Shown here: piece after piece, positions 9,152-42,220 of the stretch
Layout of the letters: every line of letters begins with the position of its first letter
Numbering within the stretch: position 1 is the first letter of the stretch
NCBI GenBank assembly: GCA_963662545.2
Contig: CAXXLL010000002.1
Coordinates: 1,600,001 to 1,664,000, forward strand
Length of the DNA stretch: 64,000 bases
Origin: Gammaproteobacteria bacterium
GTDB lineage: Bacteria > Pseudomonadota > Gammaproteobacteria > Ga0077536
Reading direction: 5' to 3'
Program-made: the position numbers and the translations under genes
The notes under the pieces: generated by a model
Seen by the model: only the letters and a program-made list of their open reading frames with translations
What the model was told of the DNA's origin: nothing
Database searches by the model: none

Positions 9152-9383
9152 GTCCACTATCGAAGACATTCCGGCCAAACTTCGACGTGACGATTTCGGC
9201 AGCAGTCGATCTATTGTGTTGAAAAAGTCGTACCGCATACGATTTCGATATATTTGCGGGTCGCTAAACCATTCCCGGAGTGCCGATCGTCGCTTACAGG
9301 CGATCCTACGCGGTCGGTTTTTCTGCACACGTCGCGACCGACGGCGAATCGGACTTTTTCAACAGAATAGGCCAGAAGCGGCC
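9152..9383 (+). repeat. Tripartite site copy S1 (degenerate B plus C; C interrupted by a MITE)
   Basis: GTCCACT-N11-TCCGGCC at 9152; removing the MITE gives approximately GGCAGCA-GTCGGCCAGA-AGCGGCC. Confidence 0.55.
9211..9370. mobile_element. MITE, 160 bp
   Basis: 19-bp terminal IR CTATTGTGTTGAAAAAGTC / GACTTTTTCAACAGAATAG, no ORF. Confidence 0.8.
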
Positions 9384-9481
9384 ACTGCGAAATACCGTGT
9401 CAGGCCGCATATTCGGGGATCTACATCGGGCCTGTTGCTGCTGACAAGGGGTAATGCCCACCATCGCTTGATTAGTCGATT

Positions 9482-9859
9482 ATGGCCTGCCCCAAGCTAA
9501 AGTTTTTCGCGATACGGACGCCATCAGGAAAATGTACTTCATGGCGCCCTCTGGTTGCCGGAGAGATGCATAAAGTGAACCTCGACCTGACGGTGGAAAG
9601 CTATTGCGGTTACGACTGGGAGACGGAATTAACCTTAAACGGCTGCATTTTTCTGGCAGCTAAACATCTTGGTTTGGTGGCGCCTGATGCGACCGGATTT
9701 GGTTGGAACAATGCACAAATCTGTGATTTGGCCGACAGGGTTAGGGTCAGCATCGATTCCGACCCAACTGTGCTGGATGCTTTGCCGAATCACGTCCGAG
9801 TCCAGCTATTCGAGGGTCTGAATCTTTCCCCCGCGGCTCATCAAACAACTCCAGACTAA
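9482..9859 (+). CDS. Hypothetical protein
   Basis: Open frame directly upstream of the PilZ-like gene; start uncertain. Confidence 0.45.
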   Translation: MACPKLKFFAIRTPSGKCTSWRPLVAGEMHKVNLDLTVESYCGYDWETELTLNGCIFLAAKHLGLVAPDATGFGWNNAQICDLADRVRVSIDSDPTVLDALPNHVRVQLFEGLNLSPAAHQTTPD

Positions 9860-9871
9860 TAATGGTGAGAT

Positions 9872-10318
9872 GTGAACAGTTCAAATGTTGACGAGGCGAG
9901 CAGCAATCGGAGCCTGCTATGGCAGGAGATAGAAAACCTTGACGAACAGCGACGCTACCCTCGGGTTCCGCTGAACATCCAGGCGGCTTTTGTAACCGAT
10001 ACGGGCCGTACATTCTCAGTTGAGATTTTTAATATTTCTCCGGATGGGCTGCAGGTACGATGCTCAGTCGAAAATGCACACTTCATTCGTCCCCAAGGTA
10101 GCAACATCAATCCGCTCAATGCGCCCTGCATAAGCGCGGCCATCGCGTTGCCCGTGGGTCACGGCAGTAGAACATTGGGATTACGCTGCCAGATGCTCTA
10201 CCTCAAAACGATTGACACTGAACTTGGCTGCATTGTGGGCTTGCGCTATGTCCAGCTCGACCTGCGATCCGAACGGATTCTTAACGCGTTCTTCGCCGAC
10301 CACCTCATCCACGAGTGA
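9872..10318 (+). CDS. PilZ-domain protein
   Basis: EQRRYPR and NISPDG c-di-GMP-binding motifs. Confidence 0.8.
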   Translation: MNSSNVDEASSNRSLLWQEIENLDEQRRYPRVPLNIQAAFVTDTGRTFSVEIFNISPDGLQVRCSVENAHFIRPQGSNINPLNAPCISAAIALPVGHGSRTLGLRCQMLYLKTIDTELGCIVGLRYVQLDLRSERILNAFFADHLIHE

Positions 10319-10370
10319 ACCGACACAGAAGTCGCATAAGCATAGGTCAATTGGCCCACCCTCAAAGGCC

Positions 10371-10398
10371 GCAAAAGAAAGCGCCCCGAAGGGCGCTA
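10371..10398 (-). terminator. Rho-independent terminator
   Basis: AGCGCCC-TTCG-GGGCGCT hairpin followed by TTCTTTT on the minus strand; near-identical copy at 10979. Confidence 0.6.
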
Positions 10399-10602
10399 TG
10401 TAGAGTGCTGTCCTTGGCGCATAGCTCGTATGGTCGGCTACGAAGGCCGTTTCATGGCCTTATGGGCGATTCAGGCGGGGCAAAATAAGATGGCCTTTGA
10501 TATTCGGCATGTCCCAACTTCCCGCACTGCCACCCAATTAAAGGGAGAAGCCCTTATTGCCGTTACCGATGCTAGTTCGTCCCTTTTGGCGGGAGATGGA
10601 AC

Positions 10603-10773
10603 ATGAAGCACAGAGAATTCAACTGGACTCCCCCTCCGGTGCGTTTAGCGTACAGCAACACCGGCAAAGTCGTTTGCCCCGGTGTCGAAAAGCTACCCAG
10701 AACCGGATACGACATCCACGTCGTTGAATACGACAAGCGTTTCGCTGAAACGACCGAGCTCGGCCCAGCCTGA
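10603..10773 (+). CDS. Small hypothetical protein (56 aa)
   Basis: GGGAG RBS, then MKHREFNWTPPPVRLAYSNTGKVV...ELGPA. Confidence 0.45.
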   Translation: MKHREFNWTPPPVRLAYSNTGKVVCPGVEKLPRTGYDIHVVEYDKRFAETTELGPA

Positions 10774-10978
10774 TTGGTTCGTTATCTCCTCATGGAAAAC
10801 ATTCTCATAGCGCTTTACTACGTCGTTACAATCATAGTCATCGTTGGACATTACATCGGAAGGCTCGAAGGACGCGGATTCGAATGGATGGCCTATGTCG
10901 TTGCCGTTTTTATGTTTCCGATGTTGTACTTCGCCTACATCCCCTAGAATCCACCTCTTTCAGCCCGCCAGTGGGAAT

Positions 10979-11006
10979 GCAAAAGAAAGCGCCCAGAAGG
11001 GCGTTT
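10979..11006 (-). terminator. Rho-independent terminator
   Basis: GCAAAAGAAAGCGCCCAGAAGGGCGTT, downstream of the minus-strand ABM gene. Confidence 0.55.
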
Positions 11007-11115
11007 ATTTGCCGGAAGCGGAAGTGCGAACGAAGGTACGCTCGTCGCATCGGGGTGTCCGTTTTAGAGTGTTAAGCAGTCCTTTTTATCCGGCATTCAA
11101 ACAGCGCGGATGCGT

Positions 11116-11433
11116 CTAAAGGACCTCCTCAAACGTCTCTAGGTTCGGATGGCCGAGGTAGGTTCCCTTGGGTGCGCTCGCCTGGGCGTGGGCTTTGCGG
11201 AAATGATCGGATTCCGTCCACGCCTCAAAGGCGATGCGGGACTCCCAGATGGTGTGGCTCGCATAGAGTACATAGTCGTCGCCGCCCGGCATTTCGACTT
11301 GCGGACCCTTCAGCAACGCGAAAGACTGGAAACCCGGGACCTCGGACAGGTAGGTGTCGCGTTCGCGCCAGACCTTCTCGAAGCCTTCCTCGAAACCGGG
11401 CGAGATTTTGAACCGGTTCATCGCGATGAACAT
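11116..11433 (-). CDS. IsdG/HmoA-like ABM monooxygenase
   Basis: MFIAMNRF...VPGF..F.LL...WES..AFEAWT.S.HFRKAH. Confidence 0.85.
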   Translation of the reverse strand: MFIAMNRFKISPGFEEGFEKVWRERDTYLSEVPGFQSFALLKGPQVEMPGGDDYVLYASHTIWESRIAFEAWTESDHFRKAHAQASAPKGTYLGHPNLETFEEVL

Positions 11434-11897
11434 GACGTTTAACCTTTCGCAGATGCTGCGGCTATTCTAGCGTGTTGCCAGTCCCTTGACCTGTTCCGGT
11501 CCGGAATCCTCCCGGCGGCCGAAGCTGCGCCGATAGAATCCACAACAATGTTCATGTTTGTGCTCATCGGGAATGCTGTAACGATGGCCATACTGAGTAA
11601 GGCGCTGTGGCCGGAGGGTGGGGAACAATAGTAAAATCGATCAGCGGTCACCTGTCCCAAATGACGTAATCGTTTTCTTGCATTGCTGATTTGAGCATCT
11701 CGATCAGTGGCAGGGCGCGATGCGCCATGCTTACTAACGGTTCGCGTTTTTCATCGTCTTCTGAATCGTTACGGTCGGCTTTCAGGGGTCGATCCGGGCC
11801 GGCTGTCACCGCTTGTTCCAGGCCCTCCAACGCCGCCCGGATGTCTTCGGCGGCAAGAGATCCGGGAACTGTACCGCTGTGGCCCATTAACTTAATT

Positions 11898-13282
11898 GGG
11901 TCTACGCGGAAACGTGTGGGTTGATATTGGCATTTCTGGGTAGTGGCGGAAGAAATGCCGCAATGATTTTCAGTTTGAGGAATTCCTCATCACGATAGCC
12001 ATAGGCGCGTCGTTGCAGGACCCGGATTTTGTTGTTGACCCCTTCGACCAATCCAAGACTGACTTTATTCTTAGCATCACAATAGGAAGCAATGCCATCC
12101 CAATGGGATTCAATCAGCTCAGCAAACTTGCGATACGGCGCCAATCGCTGCCATTTCAGACTGTCCTTCCAGCGCTCGAAAAAGGCACGCGCGCCGCGCT
12201 CGGTACGGTAGTCCCAGAGTTGGCCGAAGGTTTCCTTGAGGACGTAGGCGGTGTTCAGACGCCGGTTGGCCTGGAGCAGTTTTTTCAGGGCTCGTCTGCC
12301 ATCCAGATTCAGGTTCTCGCGTCGCGAGAGCAAGGTATATCGCTGGCCTTTGATGTAACTCCTGTCCTTGCCGCGGAGACGTTTGTATTCACGGCGCCGG
12401 ACTTCATCGAGAGCCTTTGAGAGGTGGCGCATGATATGGAACTTGTCATAGATGATCCGCGCCTGCGGTGCGTTGTTCATGACCGAGTTACGGAACGGCT
12501 TCCACATGTCCATCGCCGCCAGTTCGATGCGAGCGCTCTTGTTCTCGCCCAATGCCTGGAAAAACAGGTCGATGTCAGCCTCTTTGCGACCTTCACCACC
12601 GACCCAGATAGGACGCCCCCGATCCAGGTCACTGACGATGACCCGGTAGTTATGTCCTTTGCGGATGGAGATCTCATCAATACCGATGGCCCGGGGTGCT
12701 GGCATGCCCGCCAGCTCAACCTGCTTTTGCATGTACAGCTTATCGAGGTCTTTCACCGTGCTGTGGTGCAGGCGTTCCCTCTCGGCGACAGCCTGGTTCG
12801 GCATGTCCCGGCACAGCTTGCCCACCTGCATGGCAAAGCGCTGCGTATAGCGAGGGTTCTTTGCCAGCCAGTCAAGATGTTCTACCTGCACGCCGCCGCA
12901 CCTCCGGCAACTGACACGCCAGCGTTCGAACTCCAGGTAGATTCGCCATCCGGCAACTGACAGGTCTCGTACTCGCAGCACCTTCTTGTCGTAACGCCCG
13001 CGGCACCGGTGAGCACAGTGAGAACAGATCGCTGTTTTTTTCGCCTCTTGAGTTGGATCACACGGGCATACCGATCACCAAACATGCCCACCAATTTCGA
13101 TGCGGCGGTAAAACCAGGGAACGCAAACAGCGCTCGGATCGACTTGGGATTCTTCATGGCCTTAGCCTACCCACAAAATGAAACCACTTTCACCCCATAC
13201 GAAATCTCTGAATGTCTACATGATTTCAATGGTTTACACTTGGTCTAATTCAGAATTTACCCACATGAATCCGCGTAGACCC
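11898..13282 (-). mobile_element. ISL3-family insertion sequence
   Basis: IR GGGTCTACGCGGA / TCCGCGTAGACCC; 8-bp DR ACTTAATT at 11890 and 13283. Confidence 0.95.
11902..13157 (-). CDS. ISL3 transposase (two frames joined by a -1 shift at an A7 run, 13035-13041)
   Basis: IGIDE, MDMW.PF, DKFH, EGVNNKI....RRAYGYR motifs; the N-terminal ORF 12882..13157 overlaps the main ORF. Confidence 0.85.
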
Positions 13283-13503
13283 ACTTAATTAGTTCGAGAG
13301 CCACCGCCTCGAGCATCATGATGTTCGGTGAATGTCTGCTTTTGAAAATAATGGGCATGATGCAGCATGCAATTCTGACTGAAGGTGACCAGGCCGGGAG
13401 TTCGTGCCCCTGATCCACGCACTACACACTAGCTTGATCATGCGCGCGCGGAAAGGCCGAACCGTTGACGTTCTAGCGCTGTATCGGATTGGGGATCCGG
13501 GTC

Positions 13504-14526
13504 ATGATATCAACCATGCGCCACCGCACATCGGGACCGGCCGCGTTGCTTGCTGCCTTGTTGGTTGTCGTTATCGGAGCGGGACTGTTGATCATCACGA
13601 AAATGCCCGGACGTTCCTTCCGGGGGCCGTTGGCGGCGCTCTCCGCGGAGCAAATCGATCTCGAGGGGCGTCTGAGAGTCCACGTCGAGACCCTCGCCAC
13701 GCGCATCGGTGAGCGTAACTTGTTGCGGCATTCGGCCCTGACTCGCGCCGCCCAATACATCGACGACACGCTGGCGACCGTGGGCTTTCGATCGCAGTCG
13801 CAGGAGTACTATGTTCAGGGCAAACCGGTACGCAATATCGAGGTCGAGTTGACCGGCGCGGAGCCAAGCCGTGGGATCGTGCTGGTTGGCGCACACTACG
13901 ATTCGGTAGCAGGCTCGCCCGGCGCGAATGACAATGGCACTGGCGTCGCGGCCCTGATCGAGCTGGCGCGGGCGCTTAAAGGCCACCGGCTGCGACGCAG
14001 CGTGCGTCTGGTTGCATTCGTCAACGAGGAACCGCCGTTCTTCTACTCCGACGCGATGGGTAGCCTGCGCTACGCGAAGCGCATGGCCGAACGGAGCGAA
14101 GAGCTGGTGGCGATGCTGTCGCTCGAGACCATCGGCTATTATTCCGATGCTCCCGGAAGCCAGCGTTACCCATTCCCGTTGGGCTTCTTCTACCCCGATA
14201 CCGGGAACTTCATCGGCTTCGTGGGCAACCTGCGCTCGAAAGCGCTGGTGCGCCGAGCCGTGCAGAGCTTTCGTGAGCACGCCCGCTTCCCGTCCGAAGG
14301 TCTCGCTGCTCCCGGCTGGCTCACCGGCGTCGGCTGGTCCGACCATTGGTCGTTCTGGCAAGCCGGGTTCCCGGCCATCATGGTGACGGATACCGCGCTA
14401 TTTCGGTACCGGGAATACCACACGCCGGCGGACCAACCCGGGGTCGTGAATTACGGGCGATTCGCTCGGGTGGTGGACGGTCTCGTTCAGGTAGTCATCG
14501 AGCTGGCCGACGGCGACGCGCCATAG
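13504..14526 (+). CDS. M28 family peptidase
   Basis: VGAHYDS, GANDNGTG, NEEPP, SDHWSF, YHT. Confidence 0.92.
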   Translation: MISTMRHRTSGPAALLAALLVVVIGAGLLIITKMPGRSFRGPLAALSAEQIDLEGRLRVHVETLATRIGERNLLRHSALTRAAQYIDDTLATVGFRSQSQEYYVQGKPVRNIEVELTGAEPSRGIVLVGAHYDSVAGSPGANDNGTGVAALIELARALKGHRLRRSVRLVAFVNEEPPFFYSDAMGSLRYAKRMAERSEELVAMLSLETIGYYSDAPGSQRYPFPLGFFYPDTGNFIGFVGNLRSKALVRRAVQSFREHARFPSEGLAAPGWLTGVGWSDHWSFWQAGFPAIMVTDTALFRYREYHTPADQPGVVNYGRFARVVDGLVQVVIELADGDAP

Positions 14527-14651
14527 GGGTTGGCGCCTTCTTCGTTGAAGCACTTCCTCAAACGGAACATAAATAGATTCGGGACGAATAACACGCCTGC
14601 CGAAACGGGTGGACTTCACGTGTCAAAGTAAAACGGGCCAGGTAGCCAACT

Positions 14652-16640
14652 ATGCCGAGAACACGCGTGGGCCGACCTCCAATCCTCATGACTGTACGCG
14701 GCGTTACCAAACCGCTACAGCAATGGGCGGCTGACAACGGGCTCTAAAGGATCCCCACGAATTCATACGAATTCAGCCTGGCCGGTGATTAAGGCGTTGA
14801 GTTGTGGAAAGGCGCTTTCGAGGTCAGCGCGCGACAGTTTAAAGCGGTGACTGCGCCACAGCTGATGTCCCAAAAAAGGTAGAGACAACACCGGTCGTCG
14901 TCGTTCGGTATTCGCCTGAAAATGGCGTGCCCACTGTTTGGCTTGCGCGGCAAGGCCGGTAATCCAAAGGACGAGGCTCGCTAATAGCGCGATGAGCAGC
15001 AAGATCTCAAGGCGTTTCGTATCGGTGCACCGTGCATAGCGTAAGGCGAAGCCCCAACGATGGTTTTTGAGGTCCCGAAAGGCTTCTTCAATTTGCATAC
15101 GTTGAGCGTAAGCGCGCATGATTTTGTTGCCGCTACCGCGAGCATACGGTAAGGAGGTAGCGAGCAGCCAGGGAGCGCGGTGTAAGCGACGATATAAGCG
15201 GCCATTGGTACCGTAACTTTTGCGTTTCGCGTGTCGTCCCGGTGCGCGATGATAGGCACGCACGAGATAGAGCCGACACCAGTAACGATGGCGTTTGGAC
15301 AGGCAGCGTTGACCGATATGTTGAACCTTGGGCGTCGCTTGCGGGTAAAGCGAATGAACGTAGCACCAGCGTCCAGTCTCGGGTTTGAAGTACTTGATGG
15401 TATTTCGGATGCGTCCGATCCAATCCCAGCCCAATGCTTCGACCGCTCTAAACCAGGGGCCACGGAAGCCGGCATCGGTGACGACGATGGGGCACACCTC
15501 ACGGGGTAGTATTCGATGAAGGGTTTTCAGGAACAGGCGATGGATTCGGGGGTTATTATAGCGCCGTAGCGGATGCACTTCCTCGTACAGCGTGATGGCT
15601 CGACCGGCGATGGGGACAGCCGCTCTTAAGATGAGCATCTCTCGTTCAAGCTCGCAATCGGCCCAATCTACAATGATGAGCGGGCGCGCTATCCCTGACA
15701 ACACAGTGCGGGCCAGGGCGGCGTAGATGCCGTGTCGTTCTTGCTGAAGATGACGGTTGCCAAGTCAGGCGGTCTACGGCTTTGATGTGATGTTTGACGA
15801 AAGCTGAGCCGCTGCGATGTCGTCCTAGGTGTGTCAATGCCAGCTTGCCACCATCGAGTAGTGCGACGACTACCCGGAGCGTGGCATCGAGTCGCGCCCG
15901 ATGTCCGATGACGGCATTGCGCTCGCACCATTTTTTTAACAAGCTAATAGCGTGCATGCTGCTGCTCCTGACCTTAATGATTGTGTGGTAACGACCATTA
16001 GATCAGGCGGCAGCAGGCACGTCGATCATCTAACTGTTTGTATTCTTTGCATGAAACGTCTTAAATCGTGGGGATACATCAGCAAGGGCTACACCCCCAG
16101 TCCATTCGCAGACGACTGAAAAAGGGCGCAACCCCAGCGGAAGCGGTTGCCAAAGTTCAAAGCAGAACCCGACTCATTACCATTAACGGTAAGACGCGTT
16201 CGCTTGCCGAATGGCTGCGGCATTACAACCGCAACGACGTGACATTCTATTGGCGTATCGCCCGGGGCTATTCCGAGCAGGATGCAATTACTACCCAGCT
16301 ACAAAAACGAAAATCTGCTTTACCTCGTGCCGATAAATACGACACACCGCTTAAGGGTCGATCGGGCGTTTATTCCATTCGATGCAAGTCAACCAAGCGA
16401 TACTATATTGGAAGCAGCACAAATCTGCTGAATACGAAGACGCGTTGGTCATCTAACCTAAATGCCCAAAGCAAACGCTCATTGCCGAAGCGATTGTTGC
16501 CCGATTTGCAGAAACACGGTGCCGACAGCTTTGAGTTCCACGTACTCACGTTCTGCGAACCCGACCGCATACAATCAAGAAAAGCGACATTGTTACGCCA
16601 AGCACAAAGGAAACATCTGCGTAGGCTCTATAACCCTTGA
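14652..16640 (+). pseudogene. GIY-YIG endonuclease gene (homing-endonuclease-like) interrupted by an IS4-family element
   Basis: Rejoined frame MPRTRVGRPPILMTVRGVTKPLQQWAADNG|LHPQSIRRR...ITINGKTRSLAEW...SGVYSIRCKSTKRYYIGSS. Confidence 0.75.
14744..16082 (-). mobile_element. IS4-family (IS10-like) element with frameshifted transposase (14763..15957)
   Basis: IR CTAAAGGATCCCCACGA / TCGTGGGGATACATCAG; near-DR CAACGGGCT / CAAGGGCT; VDW, TDAGF and Y..RMQIEE.FRDLK motifs; extra base near 15765. Confidence 0.88.
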
Positions 16641-16922
16641 AAACTCACCGTTCGGCACTAATCGCTTTGGCCAGAGGGTGAGAAAGAGGAATAAGAAGCC
16701 GCCGATCAAGCTCACGTCCGCTTAGCCCGAAAGCAGCCATCATCGGCGATGCAAATCCCACACTTGATCATGACGGCTTACGGCCAACGGACGAAACCGC
16801 TATCGCGGTAGTGGTTAGCGAGGTTGTGGCGGAGTAGTAGTCAGTTCAGTTAGCGAGATGGGCCCGCCCTGTGTTGAGGTTGTTATCGGAAAACAACGAC
16901 CCACAACACAGGAGACAGGCCC

Positions 16923-17804
16923 ATGACCCAGTCTAACAATTCCATCAGCCCTTTACGTCAACGCATGATCGACGACATGACCTTGCGTCAGCTGCAGGAG
17001 AAAACGCAGAGCGGATATCTGCGTTCCGTCAAACGCTTGACGAAGTTTCTGGGTCGCTCACCGGATAGCGCGTCAGCCGAAGACCTGCGCGCGTTTCAAA
17101 AACAGTTGGTTGAACACGGCGCGTCGAGCGCGACCATCAATGCCACGATCCGCGGTCTACGGTTCTTCTTCGAGACCACCTTGGAACGCCCAGCGGCACT
17201 CAAACGGATGAGTCCGGTGCGGGTGCCGGAGCGCTTGCCGGTAGTCTTGAGCGTTGCAGACGTCACCCGCTTACTAGACGCCGCGCCCAATCTGAAGTCG
17301 AAAGCCGCGCTGTCGGTGGCCTACGGTGCCGGCTTACGCGCCAGCGAAGTCTGCCACCTCAAAATCACCGACATCGACAGTGAACGGATGATTATCCGGG
17401 TCGAGCAGGGTAAAGGTTCGCGCGACCGTCAAGCGATGCTCTCGCCCGCTTTGTTAGGTTTACTGCGCGCCTGGTGGCGCGACGGTCATCGCCGCGGCAA
17501 GATGCTCCCCAAGGGTTGGCTGTTCCCCGGCAGGGATCCCGTTGACCCGCTCTCACCTCGTCAACTCAATCGCATGTGTCACTTCGCCGCGGCCACCGCC
17601 GAGTTGGATAAACAGATCTCCATGCACACCCTACGCCACAGTTTCGCGACGCACTTGCTCGAACAGCAGATCGATATCCGGGTCATCCAGGTATTACTTG
17701 GCCACAAGAAGCTGACCACCACGGCGCGCTATGCCCATGTCGCAACGAAGGTGTTGAGCGACGTACAAAGTCCCCTCGACCGGCTGAGCTTACCGACGCC
17801 GTAA
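16923..17804 (+). CDS. Tyrosine recombinase / site-specific integrase
   Basis: YGAGLRASE, GKG, HTLRHSFATHLLE, LLGH, TARY catalytic residues; N-terminal SAM-like domain. Confidence 0.95.
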   Translation: MTQSNNSISPLRQRMIDDMTLRQLQEKTQSGYLRSVKRLTKFLGRSPDSASAEDLRAFQKQLVEHGASSATINATIRGLRFFFETTLERPAALKRMSPVRVPERLPVVLSVADVTRLLDAAPNLKSKAALSVAYGAGLRASEVCHLKITDIDSERMIIRVEQGKGSRDRQAMLSPALLGLLRAWWRDGHRRGKMLPKGWLFPGRDPVDPLSPRQLNRMCHFAAATAELDKQISMHTLRHSFATHLLEQQIDIRVIQVLLGHKKLTTTARYAHVATKVLSDVQSPLDRLSLPTP

Positions 17805-17805
17805 C

Positions 17806-32727: not shown

Positions 32728-32809
32728 AGTAACGATTAGGTCTGCAATGGGCTCGTAAGCGGTCGTCCGATAGTTCGGGGGCGCGAGCAAGCGTTATGAG
32801 CCGTTCTAA

Positions 32810-33097: not shown

Positions 33098-33122
33098 GCG
33101 GCATTGGGGCTAGCCCGCCCCG

Positions 33123-34214: not shown

Positions 34215-34290
34215 TGACGATCCTCCAATAAACCAAGCCTAAGATAATGGCGCATTTTCACATGTAACGGCGGCTTATGACACCCGTGAT

Positions 34291-35312
34291 GTCCGTTATG
34301 GGTGTGCGCCGTGCAAAGGCGGCGTTCTTCAGTGGGTGCAAGTCCCACCCGGCAACTGTCGCTCCAGCCGGAAGCAATCGGAGCAGTCATGGAGGTAACA
34401 AGATGGCTGAAGCCTTCGGTGTAGAGGGTCACTAGGTGACTTGGCGAGTGTGCAGGCCGTAAGGTGAGTGAACGCTGAGCAAGCCTCGAAAAGGACGATG
34501 CACGTGCCGACCGGTCAACCCCTATCGGGAAGGCTGAAAGGGCTGGGGAAGCGAGCGATGAGCGCACCCAGTCGGCGTGCCGGGGTAGTGGCGATGGCAT
34601 GTACACAGAGGAGAACGCGCGCAACACGGGAAGCCCGATGGCGTGGTCGGTCGTGGCGATCAACCGGAGACCGGTGACGGTCAGAGAGGGCGCTATGGGG
34701 TGGCGGAGAGGCCCGTAGTACTGAGGAAGCCGGGTAATGCTGGTGGAGGGAAGGGGCCTTAGTTCAAGACGGGCACTGAAAGCGGCAAAGCACAGGAGAT
34801 TGGGGCAACCCTAGGCAACTCCGGTAAGGTGCGGGCGCGGTGGAAGGCGTCACATGTTGAAGCGAAGGAAGAACCCGGATTGCGATCTGGGAAGCGAATG
34901 CCCACCCAAGTGGTGGCATTGGCGGTTGTGTGCAGAACGCTCGGTTCGTGCACGTCGGGATACACGGCCCGGTGTGGTGGGTCGGGTGAACTGCGGATGA
35001 CCTTTCGTGTGCCAAGGCATGAGTCTTGTCCGAGAGCCGGATGCGGTAGTTCCGCCTGTCCGGTTCGATGAGGAGGATGTGGAAACGGAGTGATGGTCCG
35101 GCTATTGAGGCACCGCCAGACGAAAGGGGCGGCAACAGATTGGCTGAACCTTAGACCACCGCGCCACATCCTTACTCTACCGATAGCCGCCTGATCGCGG
35201 CAGTGCAGCACCGCTAAAGTTTACGTCTGCAATGCGCTTGTAAGCGGTCGTCGAGTTGCTTCAAGCATCGAGTCGAGAGGGTACGACGACTTTCGACCAA
35301 CCAGAAGCGGTC
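34291..35312 (+). repeat. Tripartite site copy S8 (A split by the intron; B at 35225; C at 35285 with ACCA duplication)
   Basis: GTCCGTT-ATGGGT|CGAT-AGCCGCC, 33 nt, B, 35 nt, GACGACT-TTCGACCAACCAGA-AGCGGTC. Confidence 0.85.
34304..35180 (+). mobile_element. Group II intron lacking an RT ORF (877 nt)
   Basis: 5' GTGCG; domain V GAGCCGGATGCGGTAGTTCCGCCTGTCCGGTTC (~35034-35066); 3' end CTTACTCTAC; only a short remnant resembling an IEP N-terminus (HVEAKEEPG). Confidence 0.9.
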
Positions 35313-35423
35313 CTTCTCGGCCCGAACTCCGGCGTTTAATAACGCGGAAATAGGCGGTGCGCGCCGCGCCAGTGGCTTACGGGTGTACAATGCACGAGGA
35401 CTAACCGCGGAGATGCTAAGACC

Positions 35424-35894
35424 ATGAGCGCCAAACCCATCACCACGCCGCCCGGCTGTGACCTGTACGACCATGAGATCGATTGGCAGCCCTTCGCCGG
35501 CATCGAAAACCTCGAACTCACACTGTGTGATCTCGACGAAGAACGCCACGTAGTCGATCTGATCGTGCGCTTCGCGCCTAACAAGACCGTGACTATGCAT
35601 AATCACCTGGCGCAGACCAACATGCTCATCATCCAGGGGGAACTGCGCATGTACGAACCAGACGGCAGCATCCGCGAGGCGCGACCGGCCGGACGCTATT
35701 ACCGCGGTCGCACCGACGACACACACAGCGAGGGCGGCGGCCCGGACGGCGCGGTGGTCTTCTACAGCATGCGCTGCGACGGTGCGCACGACGTACTTGA
35801 AATTATGGACGAAGCTGCCAACGTGCAGGCGACGTTGACCATGGATGACGTTCGGGCGGCGTGGGACGCGCAGCAGCAAGCCCGTTCGGCGTGA
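35424..35894 (+). CDS. Cupin-like protein
   Basis: HNHLAQT..LIIQGE...HSEGGG. Confidence 0.75.
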   Translation: MSAKPITTPPGCDLYDHEIDWQPFAGIENLELTLCDLDEERHVVDLIVRFAPNKTVTMHNHLAQTNMLIIQGELRMYEPDGSIREARPAGRYYRGRTDDTHSEGGGPDGAVVFYSMRCDGAHDVLEIMDEAANVQATLTMDDVRAAWDAQQQARSA

Positions 35895-35967
35895 CGAGCG
35901 TGCGTATAGTCACTGTTCAATCAATTTCAGCGTCTCCTTAGAAGAAAACTGGAAACCAGGGTCGTGG

Positions 35968-36272
35968 GACCGCTCAGGGTCGTGAGCCGCCCACTCACGG
36001 CAGTGCAGTACCGCTCCAAATCACGTCTGCAATACCCTCAATAGCGGTCGCCCACTAGCGTTCGGCGGAACGTTAGCCGAGCAGGTCAGCTCACGGCCGA
36101 GGCTGTGTGAAAACTCAAAAACGGGACGACGAAAATAAAAAATTCTCCACCAACATAGTAGTTAAGGCCGTTGAAAAGGGATCGACATTTCAATTAGATC
36201 CAATTTCGAGTGTAGTTCCCCCACTTTTGAAAAACCAAAATAGTTTTCACACAGCCTCGGCCATGATCGGTC
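35968..36272 (+). repeat. Tripartite site copy S9 (A-33-B-35-C; MITE in C)
   Basis: GACCGCT-CAGGGTCGTG-AGCCGCC; GTCTGCA-ATACCCTCAAT-AGCGGTC at 36025; GTCAGCT-CACGGCC|ATG-ATCGGTC. Confidence 0.85.
36099..36258. mobile_element. MITE, 160 bp, IS1182-like ends
   Basis: IR GAGGCTGTGTGAAAAC / GTTTTCACACAGCCTC; DR GGCC. Confidence 0.88.
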
Positions 36273-36347
36273 ATAAACATCTTCATACTTTGCAAAAGAA
36301 AACCCCGCGCTAAGGTGGAGCTTCGTATTCTGATAGCGGTCCGGCAT

Positions 36348-36622
36348 TCCTTCCGCCCGAGCACCCCCGCAAGCGAAGTTGCCGACCCTCAACGACTGAG
36401 GCTCGATGTCACCCCTAAACTCAACCACGGATGCCAGGCCTCTTAAGCCAACGGTCACAGCCTCGCGCGCCCACACCCCTGTAGCACCAGCCAACGCCGA
36501 ACATCGACCACCGAACAACGCTAAACTCGGCTCATCACCGCCTCAGAACTACTCAATTGGTTCTCGTTGACGAGACGCGCGACCGACGCATGGTCGAAAA
36601 ATGGCCGTTATTCGCTCTAGAC
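36348..36622 (+). mobile_element. Possible ISCR/IS91 3'-end remnant
   Basis: PSARAPPQ...* resembles an ISCR transposase C-terminus; oriIS-like AAATGGCCGTTATTCGCTCTAGAC downstream. Confidence 0.35.
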
Positions 36623-36863
36623 TCCGATCTGCAATCTCCCCACAATCGTGATCGAGTATGTCACGTGCTCCAAATGGTAATTGTTACAAAGGGGGTCATA
36701 AGTAACCGATCATTGCCACAGACTTTGGTGCGCTACGGAGTACGTTTTTCCAATGAAGTGATGTTCGGATACTTTGTTTCGCCTTAGTAACTAGTGTGTA
36801 GTGCCCATCCAGGCTACATATTCGGATCTTCGTTTAACATAGCGCGGACCGGTTAACTGGGGG

Positions 36864-37517
36864 ATGACGTTGGCGAAGCTCGAGTTCTTCTTCGATTTTG
36901 CCAGCCCGTGGACCTATATGGCCTACTGCCGTGTCGAATCGATCGTCGCGGAGACCGGGTCGGATCTCGAATGGCGGCCGTTCGACATGAGCGACGTGTT
37001 CTAGAAGGCCAACCCCGGTGTTGCGACGATGCGCGCAAACCCCGTGCCTGCCAAAATCACGCACTATTACAAGGATATGCAGGATTGGGCGCGACGCCTT
37101 GGCATTACGATCGGCCGGCCGCCGGTATACGGCGGCGCTGCGCAACAATTACGCTGCGTTAAAGCGCTTAGCGGCGCATTGATCGCGCTGGAGCGAGATT
37201 GCATATCCGATTACTCACGTGCGATGTTCGAAGCGTACTGGCACGACTTGCGTGATCTTTCCGATGACGATGTATTGACCAATATCGTCTCGGATCTGGG
37301 CTTTGATGCGTCTGAATTTCTACAACGAGTCAACTCATCCGAGTTAAAAAACGAAATCGTCGCAAACGCCGAAGAGCTCATAGCCCGAGGCGGCTTCGGT
37401 TCGCCGACCTTTTTCGTCGACGGTGATGATATGTATTTCGGCAATGATCGGTTGGACTTCATACGTGAAGCACTATCGCATCGTCCAGATATCGCCGCGG
37501 GTAGCGGGCAGGGTTAA
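36864..37517 (+). pseudogene. 2-hydroxychromene-2-carboxylate isomerase (DsbA/kappa-GST) with in-frame TAG at 37002
   Basis: LEFFFDFASPWTY...WRPF..VF*KAN...RGGFGSPTFFV...FGNDRL in a single frame. Confidence 0.85.
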
Positions 37518-37522
37518 CGAGC

Positions 37523-38275
37523 TTGGAAGGCCAGGTCGCAATTGTAACCGGCGCTGGCAGCGGCATCGGCGCGGCCATCGTACGTGAATTCGTAACGTTG
37601 GGGGCTGCGGTGCTGATCGTGGACATCGATGGTGACCATGCTGCGAAGGTAGCGAAAGAACTGACAGACACCGGCGGGCACGCCGCGAGTTTAACGGTTG
37701 ACGTCACCGATCAAGCACAGGTCGACACCATCTCCAGCGCCGCGATCGAGCAATTCGGTGCCATTCATATCCTCGTGAACTGTGCCGGCATCGGTGAAAA
37801 CACGACGATCGCTGAGCACAGTATCGAACAATTCGAACGCATCATCGCGGTCAACTTGACTGGTAGCTACCGCTGTATCCGTGAGGTCATGGGCGAGATG
37901 ATGGCGCGCAAGTACGGCCGGATCATCAATGTGTCATCGGTCGCGGGGCTGCGCGGATGCGCGGGCCGTATCGGTTACGGCACGTCGAAGGCTGGCGTCA
38001 TCGGCTTGACCAAACATGCTGCGGTGGAGTTGGCGCCCTACAACATCACTGTCAACGCCATCGCGCCGGGTCCTATCGACACACCGTTGACCCAGGCGAT
38101 CCACCCACCAGACACGCGTGAGCAGTTCAACCGGGTTATCCCGCTGCACCGCTATGGTACGCTGGACGAAGTCGCGTTCAGCGTGGCCTTTTTGGCATCC
38201 GAGCGCGCGAGCTACATGACCGGACACACGCTCACCCTCGACGGCGGTTTCAGTTCGTCGGTCGCCATTTTCTGA
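37523..38275 (+). CDS. SDR oxidoreductase
   Basis: TGAGSGIG, YGTSK, VNAIAPG. Confidence 0.93.
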   Translation: MEGQVAIVTGAGSGIGAAIVREFVTLGAAVLIVDIDGDHAAKVAKELTDTGGHAASLTVDVTDQAQVDTISSAAIEQFGAIHILVNCAGIGENTTIAEHSIEQFERIIAVNLTGSYRCIREVMGEMMARKYGRIINVSSVAGLRGCAGRIGYGTSKAGVIGLTKHAAVELAPYNITVNAIAPGPIDTPLTQAIHPPDTREQFNRVIPLHRYGTLDEVAFSVAFLASERASYMTGHTLTLDGGFSSSVAIF

Positions 38276-38285
38276 AGGAGATCCC

Positions 38286-39353
38286 ATGAGATTTAGCATC
38301 ATTATCGTCCCGCAAGTTCGAGACGGGGAGCCTGAAGTATTCGAACAGATCGTTGAACAGATCGAATATGCCGAAGAGCTTGGCTACGACACCGTTTGGC
38401 TGACCGAACACCATTTCAGCCCCTACGGGCGGGCGGCCGTGCCGAGTATTGCGGCCCATGCCATCGCGCGGACCAAAAAAATTCGGATCAGCACGGCCGT
38501 TGTGGTTCTACCGTTTCATCACCCCGTGCGGGTCGCCGAAGAGTGGGCAACCCTCGATCACATGTCCAAGGGCCGTGTAGACGTCGGTCTCGGTCGGGGT
38601 AACCAGCCCGCGGAGTTCAAAGGTTTCGGCATTCCCATGGACGAGGCCGAACAGCGCTTCGCCGAATCCTTGGCGATCATCAAGCGCGCTTGGACCGAAG
38701 AGCGGTTCTCCTACGCTGGGCAATTCTGGCAGATCGAAGATCTGTCGGTACTACCCAAACCCTTTACGAAACCCCATCCGCCGTTATGGCAGGCCGCTTT
38801 GAGCGACTATACCGTCCAGAAGGTCATCGACCGCGACATCAACGGTCTGATCGGACCTTATCTGTGTCCGTACGAAACCTTGAAAACGAATTATTTCGAC
38901 GTGTGGCACGGACGTCTCCGCGAAGCCGGTCGAACTGATCTGGCCTTAGCACACAATGAGTTCGTCTATGTCGGCGAGAGTGACGCACAAGTCAAAGCCG
39001 ACATCGAGGAAAACATCATGTGGTATATCCGCACGGCCGCGAAGATTTGGGGCGAGCGCGATCGAAGCAAAGTCGCGAGTCAGTACGCGAATTACAACGA
39101 CATTCTCGAATACCTCGACGTCGTCCCATTCAGCGAGGTCTATAACGAATTGGGTATGTTCGGAACGCCCGACGCGGTAGCGGAAAAAGTCCGTTGGATG
39201 CGCGACGAAGGCGGTGTCGAGCAACTCATTAACTTCACGTGGTTTGGCGGCATCAGTCAGGAAAAGGCACTGCGCAACATGGAGCTGTTTGCGCACGAAG
39301 TGATGCCGCGGTTTAAGGAGCTGGTAGAAGTCGCCGGCGCGTTCGGGGCTTAA
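38286..39353 (+). CDS. LLM flavin-dependent oxidoreductase
   Basis: WLTEHHF, HPVRVAEE, GLGRG. Confidence 0.92.
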   Translation: MRFSIIIVPQVRDGEPEVFEQIVEQIEYAEELGYDTVWLTEHHFSPYGRAAVPSIAAHAIARTKKIRISTAVVVLPFHHPVRVAEEWATLDHMSKGRVDVGLGRGNQPAEFKGFGIPMDEAEQRFAESLAIIKRAWTEERFSYAGQFWQIEDLSVLPKPFTKPHPPLWQAALSDYTVQKVIDRDINGLIGPYLCPYETLKTNYFDVWHGRLREAGRTDLALAHNEFVYVGESDAQVKADIEENIMWYIRTAAKIWGERDRSKVASQYANYNDILEYLDVVPFSEVYNELGMFGTPDAVAEKVRWMRDEGGVEQLINFTWFGGISQEKALRNMELFAHEVMPRFKELVEVAGAFGA

Positions 39354-39394
39354 TTAGAGACCGTCGCGAAATTTACAGCACGGAGAAGCGCTCG

Positions 39395-40450
39395 ATGGGT
39401 GAGGAAACATTGAATAGAGAAATGATCGACGTATTTCGCGAAGAGTTGCGGCTTTGCGGTGTAGGTCCCGGCGAGAAGGTCGCGGTGCTGTCCGAAGGCG
39501 ATATCTTGCAAGATTACTCAGAGGCGTTTTTGCACGGTGCTGAAGAACTCGGCGCGGACGCCGTGCGCGTCAACGTCGCCGCGTCAGATACCAATGCCGG
39601 TGCGGAAGCGCGCCTCGCAGATTTGGGCACGAGTGCCTTGTCGACCGACCGTGAGTCGTTGGAGACGCTCAAAGGGTCTGACCTGGTCGTCGATCTGATG
39701 CTGCTGTTGTTTTCAAAAGAGCAACTCGAGATCCAGGCCTCGGGTACCCGCATCTTGCTCGCAGTCGAGCCTTTTGAATCCTTGAAACGTCTGTTCCCGA
39801 CGGACGCCCAGCGTAAGCGCGTGGAGTCCGGCGCGCGTCGCATGTTCGCAGCCGAGACCCTGCGGTTTACCAATGGCGTTGGCACCGACGTCCGCTATGA
39901 ACTGTTAAAGGGGCCGCCAACCAAATGCGTCATCACCGAATACGGTTTCACCGATATTCCCGGTCGCTGGGACCACTGGCCAAGCGGCTTTCTCGCCTCG
40001 GCTGGGACTAAGACGGGCGTCGAAGGACGGGTGGTGATGGATGTCGATGACATGATCTTGCCGTGGAAGCAGCTACTGCGCGCTCCCATCGATTTAACCA
40101 TTCGCGACGGCGTGATCACCGATGTCGCGGGAGGCGATGACGCGAAACAGTTTCGTGAGTACGTCGAAAGTTTTGAAGACCCGCGCGCCTATGGGATTTC
40201 ACACATTGGCTGGGGACTGAACGAAAACGCGAATTGGGATGTGAACGTGCCCGGCATCTGTCAGGACGGACGCGCCTACTACGGCAACGTGCTTTTTTCG
40301 ATCGGCCCGAATATCGAATTCGGCGGTGACAACGATACCGCCTGTCACCTGGATCTACCGATGAAGAATTGTTCGCTGTGGCTGGATGATGATCTGATCG
40401 TCGAAAACGGTCGCGTCATTCCCGACGATATGCGGGCGCCGGGGCGTTAG
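39395..40450 (+). CDS. NicX-like (2,5-dihydroxypyridine 5,6-dioxygenase-like) M29-fold protein
   Basis: PGRWDHWPSGF, SHIGWGLN, FS.GPN, CHLDLPM. Confidence 0.75.
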   Translation: MGEETLNREMIDVFREELRLCGVGPGEKVAVLSEGDILQDYSEAFLHGAEELGADAVRVNVAASDTNAGAEARLADLGTSALSTDRESLETLKGSDLVVDLMLLLFSKEQLEIQASGTRILLAVEPFESLKRLFPTDAQRKRVESGARRMFAAETLRFTNGVGTDVRYELLKGPPTKCVITEYGFTDIPGRWDHWPSGFLASAGTKTGVEGRVVMDVDDMILPWKQLLRAPIDLTIRDGVITDVAGGDDAKQFREYVESFEDPRAYGISHIGWGLNENANWDVNVPGICQDGRAYYGNVLFSIGPNIEFGGDNDTACHLDLPMKNCSLWLDDDLIVENGRVIPDDMRAPGR

Positions 40451-40462
40451 ACCAGGCAACGC

Positions 40463-40561
40463 ATGTCCCACACCGAAATCTGCCGCATGGATGCGGCCAC
40501 ACTCGCCGACAACATTCGTTCCAAGGCACTCTCGCCTACCGAGGTCATCGAGGCTGTCCTG
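40463..40561 (+). pseudogene. Amidase N-terminal fragment
   Basis: MSHTEICRMDAATLADNIRSKALSPTEVIEAVL, then abrupt switch to transposase sequence. Confidence 0.65.
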
Positions 40562-40563
40562 CC

Positions 40564-40935
40564 CTCGCGGCACTCATTCCCAAACTCCGCGTCAACCTCA
40601 TCCGCTACCACGGCGTGTTCACCCCGAACAGTCCACACCGCGCAGCGGACACCCCCGCCCGTCGCGGCCGCAAAGCGCCAGGTACCAAGGGTTCCGAAAC
40701 ACCCGTCGAGCGCCGCGCCGCCATGAGCTGGGCGCAACGCCTCAAGCGCGTGTTCAACATCGACATTGAAACCTGCGAGGTATGTGGCGGTGCGGTGAAG
40801 GTCATCGCCTGCATCGAAGATCCCGCTGTCATCCAACGCATCCTCGACCATCTCGACCACCGCTCTGCACAGCCGACGCTTGTCTGCGTCCTTCCTTCAC
40901 TACCGCTCCGGTCGGCCGAAGCAAACGCACGATAA
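40564..40935 (+). pseudogene. ISCR-type (IS91-like) transposase C-terminal remnant
   Basis: LAALIPKLRVNLIRYHGVFTPNS...MSWAQRLKRVFNIDIETC..CGG.VKVIACIEDP.VI.RIL.HL. Confidence 0.85.
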
Positions 40936-40949
40936 TGCATCGCAACAAG

Positions 40950-41254
40950 TCCGGTCGTTCCCGGTCTAATCGCGGCAGTGCAACACTGGTAAGGATTACG
41001 TCCGCAATCCTCTCGAAAGCGGTCGTCCAGTAGCGTTCGGCGGAACATTAGCGGAGCACGTCGGCTCACGGCCGAGGCTGTGTCAAAAGTCGAAAAATGG
41101 AGCCCGCTGCGAAAATTTTCCCCAATGCACGACTTAGATTGTTATGCACGATTGATTAAGGGAACACACCGCCTAAGGTAGGCAAATCGAGCTAAACTTC
41201 TCCCACTTTCAAAATTCAAAAATACTTTTGACACAGCCTCGGCCAGAAGCCGAC
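40950..41254 (+). repeat. Tripartite site copy S10 (partial A-33-B-35-C; MITE in C)
   Basis: B GTCCGCA-ATCCTCTCGAA-AGCGGTC at 41000; C GTCGGCT-CACGGCC|AGA-AGCCGAC at 41060. Confidence 0.85.
41074..41240. mobile_element. MITE, 167 bp, sibling of 20542..20716
   Basis: Same IRs, largely identical interior, DR GGCC. Confidence 0.88.
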
Positions 41255-41425
41255 ATCACGTCCCGAGTTCCACTACCTTTGACAGCACTATTGTCTGTCC
41301 GTCAGTGGCCCCGTTTCCTGAGAGAAAAGTGGGCGTGCACGCAGAGCCCGAACGAGTGTGTGCACAGTGGCTATACTTGGATCTGGTGCGCAGAAGTTCT
41401 GGCTGCGGGGGAGGAGTGTGTCGCG

Positions 41426-41860
41426 ATGTCACGTTTATTTGTCATGCTCGCAAGTATGCTCGTGATTCCAGCCGTGGGCGCGTTCGATACGGAACACGAT
41501 AGCCGTGCCTTGCTCTATTTTGAGGTCCCGTTCGGCAAAGCGGCAGCAGCTCCGTCGTATTCTTTCGGAGTTCGTCTGGAGCGGGTGAATCACCAGGAGA
41601 AGATGGTGGTTTCGATGACTCGTCCCGTGAGGGCCGCTCCAGTCATGGATATTCGAGGAACCCTCGAAGGAATCAGTTCCTGGACGATAAACGGTGAGGA
41701 ACTCCTCGCTAATCGATATGTGACAAGCGCGGCCGAAGGGGGTTCTAAGACGGTCGTAATAACCATCGTTGTGGTGGCAGCGGTTGTGGGCGCGGCTCTA
41801 TTGATAGTTGACGCGGTGGAGGATGAGATCGAAGAGAGTATTGACTTCAGCAACAATTAG
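41426..41860 (+). CDS. Hypothetical exported/membrane protein
   Basis: GAGGAG RBS, signal peptide, C-terminal TM helix. Confidence 0.6.
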   Translation: MSRLFVMLASMLVIPAVGAFDTEHDSRALLYFEVPFGKAAAAPSYSFGVRLERVNHQEKMVVSMTRPVRAAPVMDIRGTLEGISSWTINGEELLANRYVTSAAEGGSKTVVITIVVVAAVVGAALLIVDAVEDEIEESIDFSNN

Positions 41861-41992
41861 AACCTTCGGACGTGTTGCCTCAAGAAGGAATGTTACCGAA
41901 GTGTGACACCGTTGGGGCCGGCTCCTTAAGTGACCGGAAAAGTTGACAGTATTATTTTCTCTGTGAAGAGATAAATCCGTACGAGGCTGCAT

Positions 41993-42220
41993 GTCTTCTT
42001 CGGGTCCAGGCTGTCCGAAAACTCCGAAAAATCGTTACGTGACGAAAAATTTCCCCACTTGTTGTCCCTATAGCAGATGAATTAGGGATCACACTGCGCG
42101 ATTTGATCAGATTGGATAACGCATTCCCCACAAAATCGAATTTAGTTTTCGGACAGCCTGGGTCGACTCCGGACTCCCGCAGTGCAGCATGGCATGGCTG
42201 CTTACGGCGGTATAGCGGAC
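41993..42220 (+). repeat. Tripartite site copy S11 (A with MITE, shortened linker, B-like)
   Basis: GTCTTCT-TCGGGTC|GAC-TCCGGAC, linker containing GCAGTGCAGCA, then GGCTGCT-N11-AGCGGAC. Confidence 0.65.
42007..42160. mobile_element. MITE, 154 bp, IS1182-like ends
   Basis: IR CAGGCTGTCCGAAAACT / AGTTTTCGGACAGCCTG; DR GGTC. Confidence 0.88.

Follow-up and report, generated by a model that had tools for sequence, protein, structure and literature searches.

A 141-bp module of three dyads recurs between accessory gene blocks in co-oriented arrays of a gammaproteobacterial genome

We analyzed a 64,000-nucleotide stretch of a gammaproteobacterial genome (assembly GCA_963662545.2, contig CAXXLL010000002.1, positions 1,600,001 to 1,664,000; hereafter the window) in which blocks of unrelated genes are separated by copies of a repeated 141-bp module, or unit. 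Each full unit carries three dyads at constant spacing, and units are gathered throughout the genome in arrays whose members point in one direction. The unit is probably a new cassette-joint module, and probably one that is bound by protein. Our preferred account, which may well be correct although we would not yet call it probable, places this module at the joints of swappable gene blocks and invokes homologous exchange between units. Below, C2 denotes the contig that holds the window (C2:1600001-1664000), and C3 denotes the other of the two large contigs (2.6 and 3.0 Mb) that carry the arrays, which we take to be chromosomal.

Architecture of the unit

A recurring unit of about 141 bp had been proposed from the letters of the window alone (the original prediction), and a profile search shows that this unit is real. 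Six window copies served to build the profile, which after refinement on 89 genome copies gives 123 matches in the 5.58-Mb genome. The module consists of three dyads of 24-25 bp (A, B, and C), whose arms (GTCCGCT and AGCGGNC) enclose spacers of 10-11 bp, and its termini are GTCCGCT and AGCGGAC. A fourth palindrome of 15 bp, GCAGTGC-A-GCACTGC, lies in the A-B linker in fixed register with A, B, and C.

Spacing is well conserved genome-wide. The step from GGGTCG to B's left arm measures 48 nt in 79 of 84 copies, and the step from that arm to CGGCCA measures 69 nt in 59 of 72. The originally reported linkers of 33 nt (A-B) and 35 nt (B-C) agree with this register. Judged by eye, the B-C linker falls into subtypes that have little sequence in common and are equal in length; length is therefore conserved where sequence is not. 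After a screen for the ends of insertion sequences (IS) or MITEs (miniature inverted-repeat transposable elements), 28 entries were parsed, and 20 of the 27 non-empty units among them are exactly 141 nt long. Pairwise identity among the repeats is roughly 60-80% in the repeat search, with identical patches of 15-30 bp by eye.

Within the window, the B motif has five matches at no more than three mismatches (0 expected) and the A-B linker motif has six (0.08 expected), all on the plus strand. A repeat search of the window recovered the same family, and the units sit between called open reading frames (ORFs). The profile finds nine matches there, all on the plus strand and all within 20409-41086, and none in the flanks, in keeping with the single orientation and copy-free flanks that had been described. 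The list of 11 tripartite starts holds in part. On inspection of the window copies by eye, S3, S4, and S6 to S10 are of the 141-bp type, S5 is partial, and S1, S2, and S11 are not tripartite because they are shorter variants without site B.

Distribution of units in the genome and in relatives

Thirteen arrays contain 115 of the 123 profile matches, and the other eight are solo copies outside arrays. The arrays have 2-40 units each and span 320,227 bp in total (5.7% of the genome), the longest reaching up to 142 kb. Units are spaced ~0.1 to 22 kb apart, mostly 0.5-10 kb. Among neighboring pairs less than 25 kb apart, 102 of 105 have the same direction and three have opposite directions. This clustering and co-orientation, sought by the profile scan that had been proposed as a check, is not the scatter of a repetitive extragenic palindrome (REP). 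The cargo shows no such bias: by a longest-ORF heuristic rather than a gene caller, the longest ORF shares the direction of the unit in 24 of 49 blocks of up to 2.2 kb and opposes it in the other 25.

A conserved leader followed by a short unit occurs at six places in the genome. Three of these mark the 5' start of arrays, including that of the window; two have no array unit nearby, and one lies within the largest array. A copy at 80-82% identity is present in the congener G001, 5' of two units. No gene is conserved upstream of the leader and short unit, and the pair has no Rfam match at E values up to 1.

Some local features of the arrays were also observed. On C3, arrays at 2542182-2548642 (minus strand) and 2551769-2566798 (plus strand) stand back to back with an ISL3 copy (C3:2550451-2551655) between them, an arrangement that suggests IS-mediated inversion of part of one array. 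Runs of at least three blocks are 99.5-100% identical between C2:2578392-2588148 and C3:909864-919305 and between C2:2588000 and C3:11957, which would result from a recent segmental duplication that copied part of an array or, alternatively, from an assembly join of the contigs. The most frequent array protein family (~175 aa; 21 members in eight arrays, such as L031 at C3:372635-373201, L032, and L033) has identities of 19-99%, is co-oriented with the units in 17 of 21 cases, often forms single-gene blocks, and shows one N-terminal membrane helix by eye. It has no clear Pfam match beyond a weak one to DUF6082, and we take it to be cargo rather than an enzyme.

Units are found by BLAST as co-oriented arrays in both other genomes of the genus, G001 and G002, which are incomplete drafts (89% and 95% complete). 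The same single-unit BLAST, which could miss diverged versions, gave no unit in any of the 16 genomes that represent the family's other genera or the 12 that represent other families of the class. The module thus appears genus-restricted on the basis of these sequence searches. A scan of a genome contig collection returned six stretches, of which four (L019, L020, L022, and L024) have real units, one has a weak partial match, and one has no unit. The unit-bearing records are titled as metagenome-assembled genomes of Pseudomonadota, Gammaproteobacteria, Chloroflexota, and Candidatus Poribacteria. Among 11 stretches from a metagenome contig scan, three (L049, L052, and L057) hold real units and eight have weak B-like matches. 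A plasmid collection gave no unit match, and the listings and abstract openings returned by a full-text literature search contain no description of such arrays.

Mobility of the island and its blocks

The array of the window lies in an island of ~40 kb that is absent at this locus in both congeners, as judged from the proximity of its flanks. In G001 (contig C3 of that assembly, 419 kb), matches to window positions 1667-4465 and 44384-46609 lie only 1.1 kb apart, and in G002 (contig C136), matches to 2369-2511 and 43468-44618 are separated by 88 nt. The island has a GC content of 0.546-0.569, as against 0.589 and 0.605 in the outer flanks. The left flank of the window also carries a thiamine pyrophosphate (TPP) riboswitch (RF00059, 2439-2534, 68.4 bits) upstream of a 626-aa ORF that extends to 4458 and is presumably thiC. 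In G002, the riboswitch region is 88 nt from the homologue of window position 43468, and thiC is therefore not at this place in that genome.

Individual blocks behave as modules that recur between units across arrays and species. One block, together with both of its units, is common to two arrays on C2 (442786-445149 and 682777-685156; 95% identity over 2,333 bp). The MOSC and nitroreductase block of the window with unit S3 (20409-22634) matches C3:909864-913868 at 98.6% identity, and the FAD-oxidase block of the window (27132-28734) also lies between units in an array of G001 (95.6% identity). Furthermore, one order has changed between species: blocks U and D stand as U-unit-D in the genome studied here (G000) and as unit-D-unit-U in G002, at another locus with different core genes. 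The comparison with relatives that the original prediction called for has thus borne out the absence of the island, the recurrence of blocks, and a change of order, and it has not produced a fixed crossover position.

Joints and mosaicism of the units

Public runs X19-X24 contain 96-98% of the sampled words of the stretch searched. Contigs assembled from public runs over window positions 19300-39200 break at units, and the joints listed for these contigs are cross-matches from other unit copies. Comparisons between arrays and genomes gave six informative joints free of IS involvement, in which the identity of the block begins at unit positions 14, 31, 32, 46, 126, and ~131. Crossover therefore falls in the core of A, in the linker palindrome, at the start of B, or in the core of C. 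Four of the six fall in the interval from the center of A to the start of B and the remaining two at site C, a spread that comes from six cases and may have been blurred by later conversion. Where a downstream end is visible, identity stops immediately after the left arm of A or reaches at least GGGTC.

When the variable segments of 81 units were clustered, adjusted mutual information between segments ranged from -0.07 to 0.10, except for adjacent or overlapping pairs. The units are mosaics, and crossovers have thus taken place in every conserved patch. Exchange among units bears the signature of homologous exchange or gene conversion and not that of a single-point site-specific reaction. The fixed crossover that had been envisaged is not supported by these data, given that six joints fall at six unit positions and that variable segments assort independently. 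The several joint positions, the linkage equilibrium, and the lack of a recombinase recurring at array ends together indicate that the visible exchange is homology driven rather than tied to a fixed point.

The unit is not an attC site and shows no sign of a structured RNA

Two integron integrases of this genome score above their NCBIfam cut-off, one encoded at C2:996723-997664, with 462 bits against TIGR02249, and the other at C3:1527239-1528180. The former belongs to a classical chromosomal integron (C2:985000-997664) with at least nine canonical attC sites of ~105 nt in the 12 kb upstream of intI. These sites have the form CCTAAC...GTTAGG and make near-perfect hairpins of about -40 kcal/mol, and no 141-bp unit occurs among them. 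The second intI has few repeats nearby. Units stay at least about 50 kb away from both genes, the nearest being ~112 kb from the C2 intI and 52-65 kb from the C3 intI.

Folding was scored as a z value against 40 dinucleotide shuffles for 20 units. The mean z is -0.67 for the top strand and -0.38 for the bottom strand, with values below -2 in two of 20 units per strand, whereas nine attC sites of the same genome score -7.7 to -13.5 in the same test. Taken separately, A, B, C, and both linkers have mean z values of -0.38 to +0.21, and none folds better than its shuffles. RNAalifold applied to 86 copies gives an essentially empty consensus, with no structure for one strand and, for the other, one hairpin of 2 bp at -0.02, and a mutual information analysis found no Watson-Crick covariation, with the top pairs being neighboring positions. 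At the Rfam gathering threshold, the only matches in the window are the group II intron at 34330-34467 and the TPP riboswitch. Two unit-bearing stretches have no Rfam match at E values up to 1, so that the Rfam search suggested earlier finds no family for the unit.

Since it has no stable fold, no covariation, and no Rfam family, the unit reads as double-stranded DNA with three dyads. A structured RNA or a single-stranded DNA form was rejected because of the empty consensus, the absence of covariation, and the nonsignificant folding scores. Likewise, an attC site, or a cluster of attC sites lacking an integron integrase (CALIN), was rejected, given that the unit makes no hairpin, has no RYYYAAC...GTTRRRY core sites at its ends, has no adjacent intI, and shows no orientation bias of cargo. 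The distinction from integrons drawn in the original prediction is upheld on these grounds, and the integron of this genome uses canonical attC sites elsewhere.

Units as landing pads for mobile elements

The unit has fixed points at which at least five mobile elements insert; for several of these elements, the hot spots are the exact centers of dyads A and C. An IS1182-like element is within 60 nt of a unit match in 14 of its 16 copies. Two MITE families have 8 of 10 and 5 of 7 copies in units, with the junctions that were read located at the center of C (GGCC-flanked) or the center of A. Both full copies of a group II intron (99.5% identical) lie in dyad A after GGGT, and a third unit has the same 3' junction. 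An IS5-like element occupies CTAG of a linker in both this genome and G001. For comparison, ISL3 is found at units in 0 of 20 copies and an IS4-like element in one of 12.

Elements of the IS91 type show a particular relationship with site C. An IS91-like element of ~2.5 kb, which terminates in ...ACCA, follows CGGCCA in four of the five copies compared and always has the orientation of the units. The same IS in another genus (G012, locus L059, 9700-12190) is inserted after GTCGGCCA, and no unit-like array was found in its flanks. Insertion without duplication after GTCGGCCA, with an ...ACCA end, is thus seen in two genera. Fragments of a second transposase gene, which resembles those of insertion sequence common regions (ISCR), begin 21-29 nt from unit ends at C2:677346 and C3:1462051. 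Furthermore, 11 of 20 matches to the Y2 transposase family (PF04986) lie in or within ~4 kb of arrays.

Search for a cognate enzyme

When ORFs in the 8-kb flanks of all 13 arrays were clustered, only IS genes and paralogous enzymes recurred. Pfam searches with eight flank candidates gave P4-like integrases at two arrays, rve-type IS transposases, and remnants of an IS91-associated recombinase. In these two cases, a tRNA gene together with a P4-like integrase precedes the start of the array by 1-2 kb, and the two arrays therefore lie in ordinary tRNA-linked islands. The array of the window has neither a tRNA gene nor a P4-like integrase.

The sole serine resolvase (PF00239) match in the genome is a 112-aa ORF within an array (C2:2551529-2551855; L039, 551-889, minus strand), which by eye is truncated beside an rve-like (IS3-type integrase) ORF. 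There is no serine resolvase match in G001 or G002. Among the 64 window ORFs selected for Pfam scanning, the only tyrosine recombinase is the IS91-associated one. All seven genome matches to this family lie in or within ~4 kb of arrays, and it is represented at six of them: A3, that of the window, A9, and A12, plus A11 and A14, which have remnants beside them. Neither G001 nor G002 yielded a match to this family, and two genera in which no units were found (G012 and G013) have it. This recombinase belongs to an insertion sequence whose target resembles site C. A candidate recombinase in a gene trio at 16923-20336 was rejected, as its second ORF encodes a Y2/IS91 transposase and its third lies outside the element. 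The genome also encodes XerC/XerD-like proteins (C2:2440899 and C3:1057164). The recombinase expected to co-occur with the sites was consequently not recovered, since none recurs at array ends and the tyrosine recombinase is part of the IS91-like element.

Transposases of the type associated with REP sequences (RAYT; Y1, PF01797) have seven matches, one of which is partial and within the span of an array (a 78-aa frame, C2:745668-745793). No intact Y1 gene is flanked by units.

The array of the window and its cargo

The features of the window are listed in Table 1. The Pfam assignments agree with the earlier description of unrelated cargo in either orientation. The group II intron in S8 (Rfam RF02003, 100.8 bits) is 877 nt long, and no intron-encoded protein was assigned to it. 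In the right flank, at 58200-58370, is a separate repeat of ~167 nt with no relation to the 141-nt unit. The congener G002 contains more than 40 copies of it, in both orientations and at 87-96% identity, and it has the look of a MITE or REP-like element.

Table 1. Units, inserted elements, and cargo of the array, in window coordinates
Feature	Position	Strand	Description
Island as a whole	4500..44384		Absent at this locus in G001 and G002
Array head	9073..9386	+	Conserved leader of ~80 nt (two short hairpins), then short unit S1
S1	A-like arm at 9152	+	C-like end, no B; split by MITE ~9208-9370
Cargo blocks as a whole	9482..41860	both	Pfam
PilZ	9872-10318	+	Pfam
ABM monooxygenase	11116-11433	-	Pfam
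ISL3 transposase	11902-12981	-	Pfam
M28 peptidase	13489-14526	+	Pfam
IS4-type transposase	14763-15704	-	Pfam
GIY-YIG	16068-16640	+	Pfam
S2	16716..19295	+	Short unit (A'-C, no B); split after CGGCCA by IS91-like element 16791-19284
IS91-like element, tyrosine recombinase	16923-17804		Pfam
IS91-like element, Y2/IS91 Zn-finger transposase	17806-18960		Pfam
321-aa protein	19371-20336	+	Function unassigned by Pfam scans
S3	20411..20737	+	MITE ~20528-20722 at center of site C, terminal inverted repeat GAGGCTGTGTCAAAAGT, flanked by GGCC
MOSC	20850-21716	+	Pfam
Nitroreductase	21856-22563	+	Pfam
S4	22603..24437	+	Split at center of site A by IS1182-like element ~22617-24301, flanked by GGTC
IS1182-like transposase in S4	22808-24244	-	Pfam
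Cyclase fused to STAND ATPase	24578-26278	+	Pfam
IS6-like transposase beside S5	26311-27006		Pfam
S5	27053..27131	+	Partial (B-right to C), profile positions 67-145; behind IS6-like element
FAD oxidase	27171-28691	-	Pfam
S6	28735..28831	+	A, linker, and B present; C part replaced by other sequence
Methyltransferase	30289-31236	-	Pfam
S7	31253..32830	+	A-B linker split by IS4-like element, transposase 31371-32714
Luciferase-like monooxygenase	33123-34214	-	Pfam
S8	34291..35305	+	Split after GGGT of site A by group II intron 34304-35180
Cupin	35424-35894	+	Pfam
S9	35968..36275	+	MITE at center of site C
DsbA, SDR, luciferase-like monooxygenase	37029-39353	+	Pfam
S10	40950..41260	+	MITE at center of site C; ISCR-like Y2 3' gene fragment upstream, 40593-40858
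S11	41993..42222	+	Short terminal unit (A, part of linker palindrome, C; no B); MITE ~42007-42160 at center of site A

Weighing the possible origins of the arrays

Under our preferred account, arrays would grow and shrink by Campbell-type insertion and excision, in which a circle with one unit recombines with a resident unit. Because insertion of this type always gives direct repeats, units would be co-oriented whatever the direction of the cargo. The dyads and their constant spacing would be maintained by a bound protein complex that leaves the linker sequence free, and this complex could be a recombinase that uses accessory sites or else a protein with an architectural or regulatory role. 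Several points weigh against this account. The array-flank and Pfam searches identified no binding protein or recombinase, and no excision circle or deletion junction was seen in the public data, which consist of short contigs that break at units. The informative joints number only six, and IS copies within units could cause rearrangements that end at site A. Homologous recombination is inefficient at ~60-80% identity with identical patches of 15-30 bp, and portable homology alone needs no three dyads at fixed spacing. Part of the linkage equilibrium could stem from a few allowed variants recurring in each segment, and both congeners are the incomplete drafts noted above.

The geometry itself recommends a different explanation, which we regard as possible if on the unlikely side: the unit would be a multi-subsite site like the resolution site (res) of transposons, in which crossover takes place at one terminal dyad (A or C), accessory subunits occupy the remaining dyads, and a recombinase supplied in trans moves the cassettes. 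It would then be the double-stranded, three-dimer site of a cassette platform that is independent of integrases, and mosaicism would be secondary homologous exchange. Three dyads with 7-bp inverted arms, the fixed register with free linker sequence, the strict direct orientation within arrays, and the defined head sequence all fit such a site, as do the joints that fall between the center of A and the start of B (four of six) or at C (two of six). The truncated serine resolvase gene in one array and the tyrosine recombinase family in or beside six arrays also speak for it. However, joints lie at several positions, all conserved patches act as crossover zones, and no recombinase recurs at array ends. 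The resolvase match is broken, with none found in G001 or G002, and the tyrosine recombinase resides in an IS91-like IS that was not found in two of two unit-bearing congeners and was found in two genera that gave no unit matches. The multi-subsite recombination site originally deduced from the geometry was accordingly not confirmed by the joint, linkage, and recombinase tests. The broader proposal of a capture and shuffling platform other than integrons may still hold.

Mosaicism among a few alternative segments between conserved patches is also a property to be expected if the unit is a repeat akin to REP or to bacterial interspersed mosaic elements (BIMEs), spreading by itself or by gene conversion, with a structural or regulatory role and with blocks that it does not define. 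Units would accumulate in islands because insertions are tolerated there. We consider this unlikely. The placement between called ORFs, the eight solo copies outside arrays, and the insertion at dyad centers of the kinds of elements that also target REP and BIME sites agree with it, whereas the location of 115 of 123 copies in arrays, the co-orientation of 102 of 105 pairs, and the lack of hairpin stability do not. Moreover, only a partial one of the seven Y1 matches is within an array, block homology across arrays and species ends inside units and not beside them, and no bare unit was seen inserted between otherwise contiguous genes.

The IS91-like insertions raise the alternative that rolling-circle transposases of the IS91/ISCR type built the arrays, nicking after (G/A)CCA at site C and reading through to the next site C. 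Orientation-specific insertion without duplication would leave the units intact and co-oriented. The element after CGGCCA in four of five copies, always co-oriented and ending in ...ACCA, speaks for this scheme, together with the Y2 matches in or near arrays (11 of 20 in or within ~4 kb of arrays that make up 5.7% of the genome), the ISCR-like fragments that begin 21-29 nt from unit ends at two places, and the two joints at site C. Nevertheless, we judge it decidedly unlikely. Four of six joints lie near A or in the A-B linker, and most of the unit therefore travels with the downstream block, which is opposite to a boundary at site C. Most blocks have no IS91 remnant, the IS also follows GTCGGCCA in G012, from a genus in which no units were found, and it was not found in the two unit-bearing congeners. 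Highly improbable is the notion that the units are unusual attC sites and the arrays CALINs served by the two IntI proteins of the genome. Both proteins do score above their family cut-off, short repeats alternate with small promoterless-looking blocks in an integron-like layout, and a group II intron and IS lie within the sites, as is known for attC. Against this stand the canonical attC sites and absence of units in the C2 integron, the lack of units near either intI, the folding scores (z of about -0.5 versus -7.7 to -13.5), and the even division of cargo ORFs (24 with and 25 against the unit).

Comparison with known systems

We compared the arrays with BIME/REP, res, pdif, and ISCR/IS91 systems by layout, not by sequence. 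In sequence organization, a single unit resembles res of the Tn3 family, cer/psi, and the internal resolution site (IRS) of Tn4430, which are ~110-140 bp long with three imperfect, dimer-sized dyads at fixed spacing. Sites of the res type act between direct repeats and are targeted by "res-hunter" transposons. The unit differs from them in that it has no adjacent resolvase gene, occurs in more than 100 copies spread over arrays instead of one per element, and shows no crossover at the center of a single subsite. The pdif modules of Acinetobacter plasmids are likewise bounded by short sites, consist of unrelated genes that reassort, and have no linked recombinase. Each pdif site is a 28-bp XerC/XerD site laid out as 11-6-11, and orientations alternate, whereas the units have a 7-10/11-7 layout, three dyads each, and a common orientation on large contigs taken to be chromosomal. 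The separation from pdif made in the original prediction agrees with this comparison.

With BIME/REP, the unit shares a palindromic mosaic with linkers of set length, an intergenic position, and a role as target of specialized IS. Unlike those repeats, its palindromes have no hairpin stability, its copies are clustered and co-oriented in islands without a RAYT link, and they coincide with the ends of block homology. As in ISCR/IS91 resistance regions, rolling-circle genes and their 3' fragments lie among captured genes, and insertion is orientation specific and free of duplication; a subgroup of IS91 with an integrase gene exists. In contrast to those regions, the recurring boundary is a separate 141-bp module, most blocks have no IS91 remnant, and most joints are off the IS target.

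Integrons are the textbook route for filing and shuffling single-gene cassettes, and the folded attC site is taken as their hallmark. Like sedentary chromosomal integrons and CALINs, the arrays described here are long and one-way, with one species-specific repeat between unrelated accessory blocks, with blocks that recur in other arrays, and with sites that attract IS and a group II intron; as with CALINs, they are away from any integrase gene. They differ in that the units are not folded hairpins, have no R and L boxes, and impose no bias on cargo orientation. Further differences are that no integrase stands at the head of the array, that joints fall at several points, and that a canonical integron exists separately in the same genome. 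An integron-like layout is thus built here from double-stranded, multi-dyad, mosaic sites in a genome with a normal integron. Should there be a dedicated enzyme, the arrays would represent a second and independent cassette system. If there is none, a conserved intergenic module and ordinary recombination can organize an accessory genome into swappable blocks, and such modules also become landing pads for several unrelated mobile elements. In either case, annotation should take into account that finders based on attC will miss cassette arrays of this kind.

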